Made by a program: the position numbers and the translations under genes. A DNA stretch of 64,000 bases. Source: Yuukianura sp. NJ FZ-2021 (Eukaryota). This document shows, in pieces, positions 8,133 through 30,516 of this stretch (its first letter is position 1; every line of letters begins with the position of its first letter). The notes below the pieces were generated by a model that saw only the letters and a list, made by a program, of their open reading frames with translations, ran no database searches and was not told where the DNA came from. Location: assembly GCA_046563655.1 (NCBI GenBank), contig CM102288.1, positions 3,410,001-3,474,000 on the forward strand. The letters run 5' to 3'.

Positions 8133-8259
8133 ATTGTTTCGAAACTCGAAATTTGGAAATTCTTCACTTTACTTTAAAACTTTGTTTCAAAATTGGTCTA
8201 AACGCCGATTCTGAAATCCGAAGTGTTTCTCTTGGTACCAAACGCTGGGACTAAACTTA

Positions 8260-9404
8260 GGGTGCATTCACACTAGACAAAAAGTATCTAGGAACAAGTT
8301 CCTAGAAACTTCGGGTAACTTTTTCGTGTTTCGAGGTTTCTGTTCACATCTACAAAAATTTTCGAGGAACTTTTCCGTGAGGAACTAGGAACAAGTTTCT
8401 AGGAACAAGTTCTCCCAACTTTCCATTTTTAGATGTGAACGCATCTAGGAACTTTTCCTTTTTCATTCCTTCATATCAGCTGTGTCGACACAAACTTATA
8501 TAATTAAAAACGAAAGTGCAGCATAATGGTTGCTTATACTGGCACATCATGTTAAACCATAATGTACTACTATAGTAGCATCTAGTAGTAACCTATAGTA
8601 GTAACCTAGTAGATTGACCTTGACCTGGAAGGAGGTCATCCTGGGTTACGGTAAGGTTAAGCCATAGTACTCACGATTCGGGTTTCAACTGTACTAATAT
8701 GGTGGTAAAGAAAGGTCACAACTGGAGGACAACGACCATTCGAGTCATCTGGGTCGACCCGGTTACCGTCTCTTCACTTCTGTCGTAGTACAAGTATTCT
8801 GTAATACCATTTCATACTGAATTCGAAACAAACGTAGAAACAAAAGTAGAAAAGTGGGGGGACCCACTGACCCAGTGCTTACTATTATCGGACGTGATGT
8901 TGCACAAGCAGTTGGTTCTGTAGTTAACGTTAATCAAATTCTGAAAAAGTTAATTAATCAGAATTAAAATTTAATGAATTTAGAATTTTCATGAAGTAAT
9001 CCTAAACACGGTACTTTTCATTTCAAAAACAGAGCAAATTTTAATGAATTGAAAATGGGTTTGAAATTAGCGGGTCGACCCGAAAAAGAAAAAAAAAACT
9101 TGAAGTGAGGCAATGTGAGACAAGATGAGCCAATCAGGAGCGAGTAACTTTTTTGGAGAAGAAAAGTTGAGTGATCGCTTCACTCACCAAAAGTTCTATG
9201 AACTTTTGGTGCTAGCACCAAAAGTTCATAGAACTTTTCTGCCAAGTGTGAACAGGAAAGTTTCGGGAACACGAAACTCGTGTTGCTAGGAACTTCACGA
9301 AAAAGTTCCTAGCAACTTTTTCTCTAATGTGAACGCAAGTTACCTGAAGTTCCCGAAACAAGTTCCTTGATGCTAGGAACTTTTGGCCTAGTGTGAATGC
9401 AACC
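8260..9404. mobile_element. Non-autonomous PIF/Harbinger-like DNA transposon (MITE-type), 1145 bp
   Basis: Left end GGGTGCATTCACACTAGACAAAAAGT versus reverse complement of right end GGTTGCATTCACACTAGGCCAAAAGT. Direct TTA duplication at 8257-8259 and 9405-9407. Many subterminal AGGAAC/GTTCCT repeats; no transposase ORF. Confidence 0.88.
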
Positions 9405-10306
9405 TTAGTTTGAGTTGTACAATTTTTGAGACTTTGACACTGAATTCAGAGGTGTGAAGTACTCCAGCCCTTGACACGAACTAAAAGTACAGATGAATTG
9501 GATCTAAGTCTATTTGAATTTGATTAAAAGTCCAACTGCGGGACTCTCACTTCTGTATCTCGAGAATCTCCATTGTACTTGCACAGAAGAAGCCACCAGT
9601 GGTATTGGCAATAGCCACAAAACATGATTCAACCACCAGCCTGTTGGAGTCCTATCGCCAAATTTCTCTCCTTTTCCATCTCCCTGTGTTATTTTTGCAA
9701 AATTTTCTGCAAGGGAGGATTTGGTTTTCGCAAAAAAACAGTTAGCTCAGGTAGGCGGTGGAAATGGAACAATAACCTCGCTTCCCTTGAAAAAGTTTCA
9801 TGCTAGTTTTTGCACGGTCCAATTCTTAAGGCCTAATTGTTGAAATCACCCCCGCACGCCCCGTGCTATTCCTAAACTAACTCTTGGAATTCACAAAGTC
9901 ACTGAAAATTAGGCTTCATCCTAACCCAAATCTAGATTTGAGACTGAAAACATGATGTTGCATTTAAGTAAGTACTCGAAGCGAGAAAACTAACTAATAA
10001 CCATTAGGAATGAGAGGAGTTTTGAAGTTAACTAGCAATTGATTACTAAATAATTAGTTGTATAATTAAGCATACTGATTTTGATAACAGAGTCAGGCAA
10101 AGTTGCGGTTTGCAAGTATACCTAGCACGGACATTGTGGTTTAAGCTGGAGACTTCAACTGAAATGCGACAACTGATAAACAAGGACATGTATAATAAGT
10201 TTCTAGGAAAAAAGGTTGAAATTGAAAAAATAGCAAGTGAAAAAATTGATCAAAACTTTGAGAAATTTCTGAATTTTGCAGAAATTCTTTTATTTATAAA
10301 GTAATC

Positions 10307-21400: not shown

Positions 21401-24400
21401 TTAAAAAAAATGAAATTTTGAAAATTTCGAGATTTTGATTCAAGGGCTAAGGGGGGACCTGAGACTGCTAGTGTGATTGTGAAGATTCGGATTGTTGATC
21501 TTGTTGGAATGTTGGAATCCAACCCCACCAACCCCGTTGCTACTCGGTGAATTTTGCATTCAATTGCCAATGTCAAAACAGTATTTTTTTTAAATGCCTA
21601 ACTTTTTTTTAAACACCCGAGCTAAGTTTTTCAGTTTTTGTTCTACAATAATTAAACAGTCCACTTGTTCTTCTCCTCCAAAACATTGAGTTATTTCCAA
21701 ATTTCAATAAATTTGAGCAAAATTCAATTTCAAAATTGAACTTTGACCAAAATTGGACATCAACTTAAGTCCTGTACTCCACTTCATACACGATGGGCTC
21801 CATTGTTAAGGAGTTTAAATATGGATTTGTGTGAGTCAGGTTTGGACTGGTGCAGTTTCTGCGTAATTGTTAAATTCACACTTGACTTTCTAATTGTTTT
21901 GTGACGTAGAATTTAAACTTTGCTAATTGAAATGAACAATTTGGGACAGCGTGTGTGACTGACGCTTTCTCTTCGGTTAACGTCTGTGTCTTGAGGGAAC
22001 TCAGAGATGACTGAAACTCTGGTCCACAGAAGCAGTAGTAAATGAAGACGCTGCTACTTTCTCTTCTCGCTGTTTCAGCGATTAGGGTAGCACTAAAGCA
22101 TTGTTTAGTTCAACAAAAAAAAAGCATTCTATTTGATACAAATCAAAGGTCAACTCAATTCTTAAGATTTACTTTGTACAATTAACTAAAAAGTTCCAAC
22201 TTTGACAAAAAACTGATAAAAAACGAAATTTTGTCAAGCGATACAAAGATCTAAAACTTAAAGTGTAGAATTTACGCAACAATTTTTTGCCAAAAATATT
22301 TTGCAAAGAAAACTCTATTTTTTTGCAAATGCGTAGCCAGTTAACTAAGAATTGAATGGAAAAGGAAGAAGTGGACTTCCGATGTTGATAATTGTAGCAA
22401 CAGTGTGTTCTACTCTGATTCGCCAAAAAACGGACCACTTTTTTTCATACTGCACAACATCCGTCACACCAGAAGACCAAACAACTTGATTTACTTGTGC
22501 AAAAAGTAGCCAAATTTTAGCGAATCTAATCCCTAATAAATCCTGACTCAAATTATAATAAATTACAGTAAACTGTCTATTTTTTACAAAACAAAATTTG
22601 AAACTTTCTTTCTGGAAAAAGTCGGACTATAATGCAAGTCTTCTAGGAAGATGAAATTATCTTCCTTGTTATAACTAGGAAGTGTTAAAAAATTGAAATT
22701 AAAGTAAACAGTGTGCAAATTTTTCGCAATCAAGCGTCCTGTGTCGCCAATTTTAGAAATTTGGCACTCTCGTCTAAACTAATGATCTGCTCCATTTCCA
22801 CTTCACACGGAGTGAACAGTAGAGCGTTAGTATTAGCGTCTTAAGTTTAGCAGAAGTGGAAGTCCCCAGTGATTTAAACTCTAATTAAAACATCAACATT
22901 GCAAAAGAATGCAAATATATTAGTTCAAAACATAGGAACAGAAATTGGCAAAACCCTCTTTATGCATAAGCTCTAAGGCGCCTTTACCTTACAAAAACAT
23001 TCAAAACTTAATCTTACAAAAGTCGTTGTTTTGAAAACTCTAATGTTCACTTTTTAAAAACACTTGTCCCAAATTCGTCTTTCTGTTTTAAATTTCCATT
23101 TTGAAGAACTATTGTTTTTTCCGTGCCAAATCATGCGCGATACCCAAACAATATGGTTCCAGGAATGGAGGGAGTAACTAAGAGCTTAAAATTTCAAAAA
23201 ATTCCAAAAAATGATATTGCGTATCAACAATTTTGGGGAAAGTATTGAGTTGTTACTTTTTTTGAAATCCTATACTTGATAAATCAAGTTAAAATCCTGA
23301 ATTGAAAATTGTTAGTTTCAACACAAGGTTGTACTGGAATGGGAAGATGGGTGTCATGGACCGTGGACCAAGCTGTTGTGTTGGCACAAAGCTCAAGATC
23401 ATTTTTCATCATGTCAACTGAGAACAAGTTGGGCCAAAATGTTGATGTCAGCGACAGGTGCTGGAGGTGTCAAGTGACACTCTGATCAATTATTCATCAA
23501 ACCCCACCCAGTCAATCATCAAACATACTTTTACATAGCAAATTTCAAATTTTCAACAAAAAAAAACTACAACAATTTTTGGAATCTTCGAACTGAAAAG
23601 TTGCTGAGAATGGCGGAAGGAAGTAATCATGTGAATTTTTGGGGAGCAAAGACAAGGAAATTGAAATGGAAACACATCTTAATCCTAAGAATAACGTAAC
23701 GTGCTAAAAAAGCATCTTTTGTTAACCTAAACTTAAACATTCCTTCCGTCTCGCTTTCTGCATTTCTTGAGAAGACCAATTTTACACAATCTTTTGGCAC
23801 AAAAATTCTCAAAAGTGACCAAAACTGTTTTTTTTTCTCCAAAATCTAAAAATTCGCAAATCTGTATCATGTCGAATTTCAATGAAGTGGAAAATACACC
23901 ATTACCTAAATGAGAGTGATGACTATGTAACTGGTTTCATTTGACAAAGTTGGGGAACTGTAAACACCTAATTTGGCATTCTGCAGAAAATTGTTGCAAA
24001 ATTTTTGCCAATTTGGTTTCCAGTTTTGTCCAAAAACAGAAACAACGTCAACTTACGAAGAAATTCAGGTCTCAATCCGTTTCGTGGGAAAAAATAATTG
24101 AAAAGTGCTGGAATTTACCAGATAAGATCCAATTTCTAATTTTATGAAAAACATGAACTTCAGTTGGCCAGTTTTTGAAAAACAACAAAAATTTCCCATA
24201 CGAGTGAACTTTCTGACGTGTACGCCTTTTCCTTTGTTGGACTCCAAAATTCGCTAATGACTAAACACAATTCTGCGATTCTGCGACCTTTATCCATTGT
24301 GCAAAATTTTGACCTCGAAACCTAACGTCACACAATTAAACTTCAGCACGAATGGATTCAGTCATGATTTTTACAGTTTGCAAAAATTTTAAAAACGAAA

Positions 24401-27272
24401 CTGACTAGAGAATTGGAACGTGTCATTTCCATATCACATCAAAAGCCTATGTGACAAAAAATTGCACATGCGAAAAAATACCAAAAGTGACATGCCATTT
24501 TCCATGCAATTTAGTCCAACTCTTCCCCGGATAGGTTCATTTCTAGTTCTTTTCTCATGTTAAAAATTTTTTCGCAAAATCGTCCTTGAACAATAATTGC
24601 AAAATTTGTGTAATTTTCGGCTTTCCCTCAATCATGAGTAATTTAAGTGTAATTAAAACATCACATGCCTAAAATTGGCAAACACCAATCCATCTTATGT
24701 TTGCTTCCAACTTAACACACGTCTGACTTGTGTTCGACTTGCTAAAATTTGTAGAAGTGAAGAGCAATTTTGGCAATTTGGCACGAGATTCAAAATGGCG
24801 GGACATGTTTAACTAGTTGTAACATTCCATCTTTTGAAGTGCATAACAATTGTAAAACTCCTGCTTTTTCTTCAAATTGGCAATTTCGCCTTGTGGCGGA
24901 AGATTTTACATAATTTGGGCATTTGGAGTCTGGGAGTAGCCAAGCGTCAATGACTTTACTCAAAAGAGATGCTTTTTTAAAAAAATTGTAAAGAAATGGC
25001 AAGTTACGTTTATCATGCAGACACAACAAGCAAAAAAAAATTAAGCAATCACACACATTAATCAAACAAAAAAGATCTTGTGAGATGACACCAATTTGCA
25101 AAAATCTCCACCATCATCTTTGCAAACAAAAAGAAAAAACTGTACAAAAAAACCACACTCACTTCCTACTGCAATTGCAACCGACTTGCAAAAAAATCCG
25201 CACTATATTGCAAATTTTGAGGCGACTTTCTTTTTTTGCGAAAACTGAAAATCAGCACACGAGGGGCATTGAAAAAATTGAAAATAAGTACTTCAGGCTC
25301 TTTTTTGCAAAAAATGAAAGTCATTCATGTAAGCTCTGTGGCGTTTGGGAACAGTCCCACTCCCAACCGCCAAGGATAGAGGTGTATGGAATGGACAGTG
25401 CCTGTTATGGTAGCCTTCCGATTCTATCCTGTGCAGATTGTGACTCGATAGCTTAAGGGTTAGAGCTGTCTCCCCGGATTGGAGAAGGCGTGGGTTCGAA
25501 TCCCACTCGGTCACTTATTTTTTCTGCACTGTCATCGTGTGTCTCTCAAGCTATGTGAGCCCTGATCCCTCACATATGGTGCCGAAAGCCGGGAAGGCAG
25601 TGAGGGGGCTTGAGGGGCGGGTGATGTGGCGTTTGGGAACAGTCCCACTCCCAACCGCCAAGGATAGAGGTGTATGGAATGGACAGTGCCTGTTATGGTA
25701 GCCTTCCGATTCTATCCTGTGCAGATTGTGACTCGATAGCTTAAGGGTTAGAGCTGTCTCCCCGGATTGGAGAAGGCGTGGGTTCGAATCCCACTCGGTC
25801 ACTTATTTTTTCTGCACTGTCATCGTGTGTCTCTCAAGCTATGTGAGCCCTGATCCCTCACAGCTCTTCGCAGAAACATTCAAAACCGTATTCATTTCCC
25901 ATTGTACAAGGTTTTGCACATAATTGCAACAATAATTGCAATTTGTAAAATGATCTCCGGGGGAAGATGCTCCCAGGAGACTTCAGAGTTCAAAAACCTG
26001 TCAAAAATTGAATCGGAATACGTGCAGGACATGCACAAAAAAAGACGTCCAGTGGGTGCAACTTCCTTGTCAAGTTGTTTATTGCTCGGAAGCAAAAGAT
26101 GCTGTCAAGATGTGGTCAATGACCTTTGGCCACTGGCTGATTGCCAACAATTGCCAATCAAGATGCTGCTCCCGGGTAGACAATGACTTTTTAAATTAAA
26201 ATCACAATGTTGTCAAACTTTTGGCAGGCAGAGGCCGATGATTCCAGCGACACGCCCAATTTTTGCATTAAACTTTAAAGAAATGTGAATACGTCAATGG
26301 ACTTTGAAAACAATGGGATAATTGAAATTCAAAATTGTTTTCTTATGGTTCAAAATCTTTTCCGAAAAGCCTATCGTCTTGTTTATTTTTAGGAAAACAA
26401 CAATAGACAACGGGAATATTCAAAAGTTTCAGAAAAATATGCGTCAACGAACGGCACTTTTCTGGCCAAGCAAGCAGCGTAAGCAAATAACTGTTAAAAT
26501 TAAATTTTCAAAATAGGTAGCAATGAAATTTTCACTAAAGTGAAACTTCGCAAACCAAATTTTTGGTTTTTGAAAATGAAAAGTTTCATTTTTGGGAAGA
26601 CGGGAAGGACTTCAGAATGTTAGAAATTTCGGTTTTGGCGGACGACCTTTCCGTTTACCTCAAGATAAAACGAATGTAGTTAAAAAGCTGTGGATGGAAT
26701 TGCTGTTGATTATTTTGTCAGTTTAGCTAAATTTTTGTTAAAATTTTGAAAATTTGAGGTGATCATGATTAATTGCGGTTAATTGGAGGTGAGTAGTGTT
26801 GGGATTTAAGGAAGCCAGGACAATGATGTTGCAATTTCTGAATAATTTAGAAAGTGGACCAATCCATCTTGTTCTTTAGTCGATACAACAACAGGAGGCG
26901 GCATTTCACAGAACAAATCAAACTTTAACTAAATTTTGAATCAAAAACTTAATTATTTAAATTACTCTAAAACTTCCTGTTCCAATAAATGAAATTTTTA
27001 AAAATTTGCAAAAGTGGGACTTGAATGCCAGTGACAAAATGGAAATGCCAAAAATGCCTAAAAATATGTTAGGCTTTAGTTAGCAGTCCATAATCTAGGT
27101 ATAAATTAACTTAGGTTTTGAGTGGTGGTTCACTTTTTTTGGTGGGGCAATATTTTGGTGGGGCATGAAAAGTTGAAATGTGACTTTACCTGATGGTGGG
27201 GCCATGTCGATGACTGGCCAAGGTCACTTGACTGTCAGATTTCGTGTGATGCATCACTGCTTCAATTACCAT
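15486..27272 (-). CDS. Nep2: Neprilysin-2-like M13 zinc metallopeptidase (type II membrane protein)
   Basis: [10 protein letters not shown] (HExxH), [27 protein letters not shown] and C-terminal [18 protein letters not shown] exon [34 protein letters not shown] (21394-21266). Inferred first coding exon 27272-27190 (MVIEAVM...HGPTIR) splices in phase across a ~5.8-kb intron. Confidence 0.9.
25442..25513 (+). ncRNA. tRNA-like Pol III cassette in the 5' LTR (not a canonical tRNA)
   Basis: A-box TAGCTTAAGGG; D-stem GCTT/GAGC; anticodon-like stem TCTCC-CCGGATT-GGAGA; T-arm GTGGG-TTCGAAT-CCCAC (B-box GGTTCGAATCC); bulged acceptor stem; T6 run at 25518-25523. Confidence 0.8.
25730..25801 (+). ncRNA. 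tRNA-like Pol III cassette in the 3' LTR (copy of 25442-25513)
   Basis: Same sequence as the 5' LTR cassette, offset by 288 bp. Confidence 0.8.
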
Positions 27273-28784: not shown

Positions 28785-30516
28785 TCAGCACTTGTCTAGC
28801 GCCTGAGCCAAATCTGCCAACAGATCTTCTTCACTCTCCAATCCAACTGAAACCCGAATGAAGTTGTCAGTAATTCCCAGTTTTTGGCGCATTTCCGGCG
28901 GAAGAGAGGCATGAGTCATTGAAGCCCTAAGGAAATGACAGAAAATTCAGGTTGGGTATAATTTTAAAATTATCTGGTTCTAATATTTGGAAACCTACGG
29001 TACTTCTGCCAAACTTTCATATCCACCAAGACTTTCAGCGAGAGAAAAGATTTGGAGTTCTTGTAGGAACTTGTTTGGATCTCCAGCGCCTTCTTTGATG
29101 TAGAATGAAAGAAGTCCAGAGTGTCCAGAACATTGTTTCAGAGCAAGAGCATGTTGCGGGTGAGACGGAAGTCCTGGATGAAGAACTTTGGATACCTTGG
29201 GGTGCTTTTCCAGGAACTTTCCAACTGCCAAGGCGTTGCTCATGTGTAAAGGCATTCGGACGTGAAGAGTCTTCAAACTGCGATTGACCAAGAAGCAGTC
29301 AAATGGAGACGGAACTGCTCCGATTGCTACACAGAAAAAAATTCGTTTCTGAATTCTGAAAACGTTTTTTGAAAAGATGTTTGAGACAATGGTGTACCAT
29401 ATTGAAGAAAGGAAATTCGTTTATCAAGTTCTTCGTTGTTGGTGACAATGGCTCCCATCAACACATCGGAATGTCCATTCATGTACTTTGTAAGGCTGTA
29501 TACGACCAAATCAGCTCCGAGCTCCAACGGTTGCTGTGAGATGGTCGAAATCAAAAGTTAGAACAATTGAAAATTGAATTTAAGATGTTGTTTAAAAAAA
29601 ATTATAGCGCTGTGTACCTGATAGAATGGGGTGAGGAACGTGTTGTCCACAACCACAATGATATCCTTGTTATATGAATGAGCAATTTCAGAAACTTTGG
29701 CAATGTCAACGAGTTTCAATGTTGGATTGGTCGGTGTCTCTGCCCAAACGACCTGAAGCAAAGCAAAAATCAAAGCATCATAAGCATATGAAATTCACTG
29801 ATAAATGAACGACACGCTTCATAACCTTTGACTCTTCTTGAGTCAGCAAAACGAAACTTGCTTTATCTTTCTTTTACCTTGGTGCTGGGCGTGAGAGCGG
29901 CCCGCAGCTCCTCAGGGTTAGCAAAGTCAACGAAGTCGGCACAAAAGCCGTTGGTCTTGCCCAATTGTCGAAAGAGTCTTCCAGTTCCACCGTAGACGTC
30001 ATCTATGCAAACGATATGATCTCCAGACGTCATCAACTGGACAATTGCGGAACAAGCTGCGAGACCTGACCCGAAGCAAGTTGCTACACGAGAAAAGAGA
30101 TAACGTTGAGGACACAAGAATCATTCGCTTGCACGTACGTCACAGTAAAAGGGCTGATAAATTCTTAGTTACCGAATTTTGCTTTATCAAGAGCTGCCAA
30201 CGTTTCTTCCAGAACTTGTCTTGATGGATTTCCACTTCGAGTGTAGTCGTAGCCCTTGAAAAAAAAATCCTTTAACAATTTTGATAAAAATTTTGAATTT
30301 TTTGATTTTTTTTTTTTGAGTACTTACTCGATGTTTTGCAGGTTCATCTTGAACAAATGTGGTTGAAAGCGTAATTGCAGGAACTACGGGTGCGTGACTG
30401 AAATCTTTTGGTTTGTAACCAGCATGGATCGCTGCGGTTGCAAAATTTTTGCTCACAGCTTTCCAACCACTATTGTGCTCTCCGTTGACCACTCCGTTTG
30501 TTGTTCCGTTCATCAT
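28785..30516 (-). CDS. CTH: Cystathionine gamma-lyase (Cys/Met metabolism PLP-dependent enzyme)
   Basis: [48 protein letters not shown]-lysine motif [13 protein letters not shown] and [15 protein letters not shown], across about 7 exons. Confidence 0.95.

Follow-up and report, generated by a model that had tools for sequence, protein, structure and literature searches.

The 64,000-nt stretch of DNA analyzed in this study (the window, to which all positions given here refer) contains, at 25333..25866, a short feature that is very probably an intact, nonautonomous long terminal repeat (LTR) retrotransposon of 526 bp, a terminal-repeat retrotransposon in miniature (TRIM) of the Helenus or "TRIMp3" type, in a springtail-like hexapod. 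Two LTRs of 238 bp enclose an internal part of 50 bp, and each LTR carries a tRNA-like unit with features of a gene for RNA polymerase III (Pol III). Contigs of public sequencing runs show that an allele of the same site lacks the element and that the element belongs to a repeated, diversified family, which is present under two organism labels.

The LTRs lie at 25337..25574 and 25625..25862, with starts 288 nt apart, and both a repeat search and a script found them to be 100% identical; they were the sole direct repeat in the window at a seed of 14 and a minimum of 45 nt. Their ends read TGTGGCGT...CCCTCACA, that is, TG...CA, in a script check. Directly outside them stands GCTC, at 25333..25336 and again at 25863..25866, a 4-bp target site duplication (TSD); 4-mers at a spacing of 530 bp match in this way at 0.68% of window positions. 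The internal part consists of TA, an 18-nt primer-binding site (PBS) at 25577..25594, which lies 2 nt past the 5′ LTR, and a 30-nt polypurine-like tract (PPT) at 25595..25624, with 23 purines in its 30 positions, which directly abuts the start of the 3′ LTR. All of these parts, and those of the LTRs described below, are given on the plus strand. The earlier note on this DNA, made from the sequence alone, had described the same order of parts (GCTC, LTR, TA, PBS, PPT, LTR, GCTC; 526 bp between the TSDs) with identical LTRs bounded by TG...CA, and every part was found in its place. The element had also been called noncoding, in agreement with the three open reading frames (ORFs) that overlap it, which are without a Pfam match. 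Its G+C content is 52.7% (51% in the 5′ LTR alone, against 35% in the flanks), compared with 35.4% across 2 kb of flanks, a composition foreign to its surroundings. No TATAAA, TATATA, AATAAA, or ATTAAA occurs anywhere in the element, and there is no A-rich or simple-repeat tail at it. The window holds no second copy, the next best blastn match being 22 nt long at 91% (E = 0.096).

The tRNA-like units occupy 25442..25513 in the 5′ LTR and 25730..25801 in the 3′ LTR. Both score 39.0 bits with the Rfam tRNA model (RF00005), for which the gathering score is 29, and they were the only gathering-level hits in the window in a search with 4,227 Rfam families. ARAGORN likewise found two genes over the whole window, at 25440 to 25515 and 25728 to 25803, both in the LTRs and both called tRNA-Ser(GGA). 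The minimum free energy structure of the unit is a cloverleaf with a bulged acceptor stem. In the 5′ LTR the box A region spans 25449 to 25459 and box B, GGTTCGAATCC, spans 25493 to 25503; the second box B lies at 25781 to 25791. To call both boxes intact, as had been done before, was slightly generous: box B contains GGTTC and box A contains the TRGCY part (as TAGCT), but the YGG part of box A is absent. A run of six T residues (T6) that resembles a Pol III terminator begins 5 nt past each unit, at 25518..25523 and 25806..25811, and these two are the only runs of at least four T residues in the element. In an Rfam search of 25000 to 26200 at E ≤ 1, neither 5S rRNA nor any ribozyme family was among the matches, which comprised tRNA and a chance match to Plastid-ycf2; the hammerhead that characterizes retrozymes was thus missing from them.

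The history of the insertion can be read from contigs of four public runs that we placed on positions 24300 to 26900. Runs X1 and X2 come from the same sample, run X4 carries a different organism label (organism B), and run X6 is a sediment metatranscriptome from another study. One X1 contig joins 25331 to 25862 and omits exactly 530 bp, the 526 bp of the element plus one TSD of 4 bp. The contig keeps a single GCTC, has six letters (A-GCTC-T) that fit both sides of its joint, and extends 37 nt on the shorter side; its depth is 145, compared with 162 to 187 in neighboring single-copy contigs. This contig is an empty-site allele of the kind that the earlier note had advised looking for. A second joint, from 25306 to 25864 with 28 replaced letters, was found in both X1 and X2 and is also without the element. 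By eye, the replaced letters correspond to the 30 nt just before the element in diverged form. The joint comes from either a diverged haplotype or a copy of the site, likewise uninserted. The insertion site is outside the X4 contigs, which leave 25083 to 25343 and 25866 to 26039 without cover. Since the two LTRs are identical and the empty site is segregating, the insertion appears recent, as had been claimed, and its helper would have been recently active; the element is probably still active.

Evidence for a family comes from the same runs. In X1, 246 contigs could be placed on the region, 174 of them in two places; the numbers for X2 were 235 and 155. The six bins that lie entirely within the element had a summed word depth of 3,800 to 32,700, and those entirely outside it had 0 to 550; this measure differs from copy number and is used here only as a sign of repetition. 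Joints at 25364/25365 reveal relatives with the same first ~28 nt of the LTR. From loose contig ends at 25490 and 25523, and at their equivalents in the 3′ LTR, it appears that the segment between box B and the T6 run, both included, is common to the subfamilies, which diverge between the shared LTR start and this core and again past 25523. The contig pieces with diverging ends, and a depth much higher over the element than in the flanks, support the claim of a multicopy family. Under the second organism label, X4 contigs at 25546 to 25653 and 25694 to 25806 show no differences from the window, and X4 contigs in the flanks differ from it by a few percent. In X6, one contig covers 25357 to 25518 with no differences, another covers 25489 to 25674 with no other letters and two gaps, and a 162-nt contig at 25645 to 25806 has 17 differences; the second of these crosses the first T6 run and continues through U5 and the PBS into the next LTR. 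Depth in X6 was confined to 6 of 30 bins, all inside the element, with the flank bins uncovered, and the X6 share of 0.10 reflects the element only, so that we read no habitat from it. The junction of LTR, PBS, PPT, and LTR is spanned by independent contigs in both X4 and X6.

The loose ends before 25490 and 25778 also reveal other subfamilies in which the sequence of the anticodon arm (25464 to 25486 in the window), upstream of the shared box B core, is different. By eye, a C-G stem pair is replaced by T-A, both sides having changed, and GGA is retained in the loop. These consensus loose ends, with an agreement of 0.72 to 0.88, hint that the tRNA-like fold has been maintained across subfamilies.

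The PBS agrees in 17 of 18 positions with tRNA-Phe(GAA), as the earlier note had claimed; the comparison is with 3′-end oligonucleotides of Drosophila (preprint 10.1101/699934) and human (PMC10993922) tRNA-Phe as printed, and the mismatch is at position 12. A single X2 contig with a loose end at 25603 carries a variant PBS with three substitutions relative to that of the window. The first 12 nt of this variant equal the start of the PBS for tRNA-Lys1,2 as printed in PMC1084362, and positions 12 to 18 are as in the window copy. This pattern suggests that the family underwent a primer switch from a Phe type to a Lys type. On the same evidence, the G at PBS position 12 seems to be an ancestral feature of the family and not a recent mutation.

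The element would copy like any LTR element, yet wholly in trans. The Gag, reverse transcriptase, and integrase of a helper element would package and copy its RNA; host tRNA-Phe would prime the minus strand at the PBS and the purine tract would prime the plus strand, and the helper integrase would make the 4-bp duplication. By analogy with animal Helenus, this helper is probably Gypsy-like. Pol III would start from the internal promoter of the tRNA-like unit in the 5′ LTR and continue to the T6 run of the 3′ LTR, where transcription would end. With the T6 runs as the only runs of at least four T residues in the element, a full-length transcript must pass the first of them and terminate at the second. 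The product, an RNA of ~370 nt, would carry the tRNA-like unit (25442..25513) as its terminal redundancy (R), with a predicted U3 at 25337..25441, upstream of the unit if Pol III starts at the 5′ end of the unit, and a predicted U5 at 25524..25574, the 3′ part of which is complementary to the tract after the PBS. We favor this model, which has been proposed for the class (Kojima 2024, PMC10886601), and put the odds that the template RNA is made by Pol III from the 5′ LTR unit at about even. The absence of TATA-like and polyadenylation motifs, the core from box B to T6 that the subfamilies have in common, and the X6 contig that crosses the first T6 run are all in favor of such a transcript. In a fold of the putative RNA (25442 to 25811), pairing occurs between the purine-rich tract and the 3′ part of U5, with the PBS in the loop (z = −3.3); none of 100 shuffles reached a fold as good. 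Stems around retroviral PBSs are known, and the predicted pairing that loops out the PBS hints at a resemblance to them.

A more specific proposal, which we make tentatively and regard as possible though doubtful, is that the R region of this LTR retroelement is formed by the complete tRNA-like Pol III gene together with its T6 terminator. Pol III would then mostly yield a tRNA-like RNA of ~80 nt, and occasional read-through of the terminator in the 5′ LTR would give the terminally redundant RNA of ~370 nt, to be copied by a helper primed with tRNA-Phe. Retroviruses bypass a poly(A) signal, and read-through by Pol III would be the counterpart.

Several observations weigh against the picture of a multicopy, Pol III-transcribed Helenus element. 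A T6 run is normally an efficient stop for Pol III, and here it follows after ~80 nt, still inside the 5′ LTR. Box A is without its YGG part, and the energy of the cloverleaf is weak when taken alone (z = −1.78), with 10 of 200 shuffles folding equally well. The lack of T4 runs between the two T6 runs, which we considered as a Pol III signature, was dropped, as 45% of 5,000 shuffles also lacked them. The X6 contigs show neither strand nor transcript ends and could be carried-over high-copy DNA. The multicopy claim is built on contig pieces and summed word depth, with one copy in the window itself, and scans of metagenome contigs with the 5′ end of the LTR (24 nt) and with the core from box B to the terminator (27 nt) returned 0 loci each. 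Finally, the exact empty-site joint was seen in one contig of one run and not in X2, which comes from the same sample.

The most serious rival accepts the same TRIM and assigns its template RNA to Pol II or to read-through from the neighborhood. The tRNA-like unit would then be a passenger (a captured tRNA gene or the head of a short interspersed element [SINE]) from which Pol III makes only an RNA of ~80 nt without a role in transposition. We consider this explanation unlikely, though well short of negligible. The spacing of the first T6 run behind the unit, which is the usual place of a Pol III terminator, speaks for it, and the X6 contig at 25357 to 25518 includes sequence upstream of the tRNA-like start, which could equally be the U3 of a 3′ LTR. 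The Pol III function of Helenus is, moreover, not validated according to Kojima 2024 (PMC10886601). On the other hand, the element offers none of the four TATA-like and polyadenylation motifs searched for, its core from box B to T6 is kept between subfamilies as expected under selection, and Cassandra is reported in the same paper to be transcribed by Pol III from LTR to LTR.

Two further explanations carry much less weight. It is very improbable that the unit is a working tRNA-Ser(GGA) gene and that the element spreads functional tRNA genes. tRNAs carry a U immediately before the anticodon, and eukaryotic tRNA-Ser carries a long variable arm. The anticodon loop of the unit reads CCGGAUU, with a C directly before the anticodon, and there is no long variable arm; in the Rfam alignment, the acceptor stem also has a nonstandard pair and lacks a base. 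Because of the imperfect acceptor stem, this C, and the missing arm despite a Ser anticodon, the unit appears unlikely to work as a tRNA, and we rejected a functional gene on these grounds, even with an ARAGORN call, an Rfam score above the cutoff, and a terminator directly downstream in its favor. Kojima 2024 (PMC10886601) allows that a few Helenus families might encode tRNAs and holds most such units to be nonfunctional. That no mobile element exists here, the feature being a local tandem duplication of 288 bp, two neighboring SINE insertions, or an assembly artifact, is barely credible. Duplication, or misassembly of a repeat, could in principle leave two direct copies with a short spacer between them. 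Against this stand the TG...CA ends, the PBS just past the first repeat, the purine tract abutting the second, the TSD, and the absence of an A-rich or simple-repeat tail. Local duplication and paired SINE insertions are excluded because the contig without the element lacks precisely the whole 530 bp, and an artifact behind the 238-bp duplication is excluded because the LTR-PBS-PPT-LTR junction recurs in data independent of the assembly, under another organism label (X4) and in another study (X6).

The preferred reading as a TRIM of the Helenus type draws on the description of that group in Kojima 2024 (PMC10886601), where Helenus denotes TRIMs with tRNA-derived sequence in their LTRs; the class exists as the earlier note had described it, with tRNA-like LTRs and 4-bp TSDs in animals. 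Its members measure 311 to 1,263 bp; animal members have TSDs of 4 bp, and those of fungi and a plant have TSDs of 5 bp. Most carry YGG in box A, and the animal members are linked to Gypsy elements through shared PBS regions. An origin by insertion of a tRNA-derived SINE (SINE2) into a TRIM LTR is proposed in the same paper, and the group is held to be polyphyletic. The element in the window shares the basic plan of two short LTRs that bear a tRNA-like unit with boxes A and B, with only a PBS and PPT between them and no coding capacity. Its total length falls inside the range of the group and its LTR length inside the range listed there. The tRNA-derived sequence was recognized in both LTRs by Rfam (39 bits) and ARAGORN, with box B and the TRGCY part of box A; the PBS follows the LTR after 2 nt and fits the printed Drosophila and human tRNA-Phe oligonucleotides at 17 of 18 positions; and the 4-bp TSD, seen at one insertion, stands on both sides of the element and in a single copy in the empty-site contig. 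Membership in a multicopy family is indicated indirectly by many contigs, higher word depth, and diverging loose ends, all of which are pieces and not an individual further copy. Signs of coexisting subfamilies and of a change of PBS also agree with what is described for Helenus in PMC10886601.

The element differs from the published Helenus families in several respects. The host is springtail-like, whereas all 40 arthropod families listed in Kojima 2024 (PMC10886601) are from Hymenoptera. The primer is tRNA-Phe, whereas the animal primers listed there are Lys, Leu, Trp, Arg, His, Ile, Pro, Glu, and Ser; "tRNA-Phe" has 0 occurrences in the main text of that paper, a search that did not extend to the PBS display in its Figure S2. 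The internal part of 50 bp is much shorter than the 197 to 621 bp of the wasp families and is nearer to those of fish (43 to 48 bp) and Lingula (58 to 60 bp), and box A is without the YGG that most members carry. When words from the element were looked up in the supplement, an 11-mer from the PBS gave 0 matches and a 14-mer from box B gave 1, in a fungal family. Searches of the text and supplement for Collembola, springtail, and Folsomia gave 0 occurrences, and in the literature on Helenus and TRIMp3, and by title or abstract among the listed papers on Collembola TRIMs, we found no report of the class in springtails, Repbase and Dfam being outside the scope of that search, so that an unpublished database entry is possible. 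To the question whether such an element had been described in this lineage, the answer is partial: the class was described in 2024, and a report from Collembola was not found in the text, Table 1, or Table S1 of Kojima 2024 or in the literature searched. Neither a springtail-like host lineage nor a tRNA-Phe primer is reported for the class in these sources.

Comparison with other small elements places the feature outside their definitions. Cassandra of plants and Ajax of a nemertean are likewise TRIMs with a small-RNA gene, including its Pol III promoter and terminator, in the LTRs, and the same working model applies to them, their transcription being reported to run from the unit of the 5′ LTR to that of the 3′ LTR (Kojima 2024, PMC10886601). 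The small RNA in their LTRs is 5S, however, and is tRNA-like here, so that the 5S-derived LTR sequence by which they are defined is missing. Ajax also has a TSD of 5 bp (Table S2 of PMC10886601) rather than 4 bp, and the terminal redundancy reported for Cassandra in that paper is 18 nt, in contrast to the ~80 nt implied here. SINE2 elements share the tRNA-like head with internal Pol III boxes, the nonautonomous nature, and the short, interspersed form. Unlike the element, they are without LTRs, PBS, and PPT and are moved by long interspersed elements, and T6 here follows the tRNA-like unit directly, as at a tRNA gene, in place of a SINE body and tail. With an LTR-PBS-PPT-LTR order and TG...CA ends present and a tail absent, the feature is not a tRNA-derived SINE. 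Ordinary animal TRIMs, such as PbTRIM of ants and the TRIMs of bivalves, have the same miniature LTRs, PBS, and PPT, are without ORFs, and are moved in trans, but by the distinction between TRIMp2 and TRIMp3 in PMC10886601 they have no small-RNA gene in the LTR.

The window offers no helper of its own. When its 152 stop-to-stop ORFs of at least 75 amino acids were scanned against Pfam, none (0/152) matched a reverse transcriptase, RNase H, integrase, protease, or Gag family. Around the element, the same Pfam scan recognized genes that are usual for an animal, namely an amino-acid transporter at 5.6 to 7.0 kb (minus strand), a Vps54/syndetin-like gene at 11.4 to 14.5 kb (plus), an M13 peptidase at 15.5 to 19.8 kb (minus), a cystathionine gamma-lyase at 29.0 to 30.1 kb (minus), and low-density lipoprotein (LDL) receptor class A repeats at 49.7 to 63.4 kb (plus). 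The element is probably intergenic, because the stretch from 20 to 28 kb in which it lies contains no ORFs recognized by Pfam. In the X1 and X2 contigs, summed word depth is raised in the flanks at 24300 to 24560 and 26214 to 26560, where alternative letters are frequent and small indels occur, and 102 nt are skipped at 26563 to 26666; these signals suggest that the sample contains further repeats or haplotypes that have diverged strongly. Elsewhere in the window, at 8253 to 9411, a pair of inverted repeats of 46 nt, 83% complementary and 1,067 nt apart, bounds ~1.16 kb in which CTAGGAAC-like repeats are numerous in the subterminal parts of both sides and ORFs of at least 75 amino acids have no Pfam match. 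This region looks like a nonautonomous DNA transposon.

The neighboring genes also bear on the identity of the host. The transporter ORF is closest to springtail proteins (70% identity with Folsomia candida and 67% with Orchesella cincta), with insects next at no more than 57%; the two springtail proteins are 73% identical to each other. For the cystathionine gamma-lyase exon, the named single-domain proteins gave 75% for Orchesella dallaii and O. cincta and 72% for mosquitoes, in weak concordance with a springtail affinity. A protein atlas resolved the lineage no further than Eukaryota, with Streptophyta or Chordata as the most frequent phyla, and was thus uninformative on this point. On these protein identities, the host is most likely a springtail outside Folsomia and Orchesella. 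The same exon (28995 to 29420, minus strand) has unnamed relatives at the Joint Genome Institute (JGI) with 88% and 78% identity on contigs of 1.3 to 1.5 kb. Close relatives of the host thus seem to be present in environmental transcript or contig data, though the LTR words were absent from the metagenome contigs scanned.

Helenus was defined only in 2024, and its arthropod members are known only from parasitoid and gall wasps (Kojima 2024, PMC10886601). The element described here widens this host range to a basal hexapod lineage and adds tRNA-Phe to the primers. Elements of this kind inflate tRNA gene counts, both "tRNA-Ser" calls in the window being borne by the element, and they may find use as insertion-polymorphism markers. 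With an R region that would consist of a tRNA-like unit and its terminator, the element is also a very compact one in which a Pol III transcript could be tested as the genome of an LTR retroelement. If the Pol III gene does serve as the R region, the family would be the first animal system for a direct test of Pol III-driven LTR retrotransposition, because it is polymorphic in a small arthropod and present in an RNA library.

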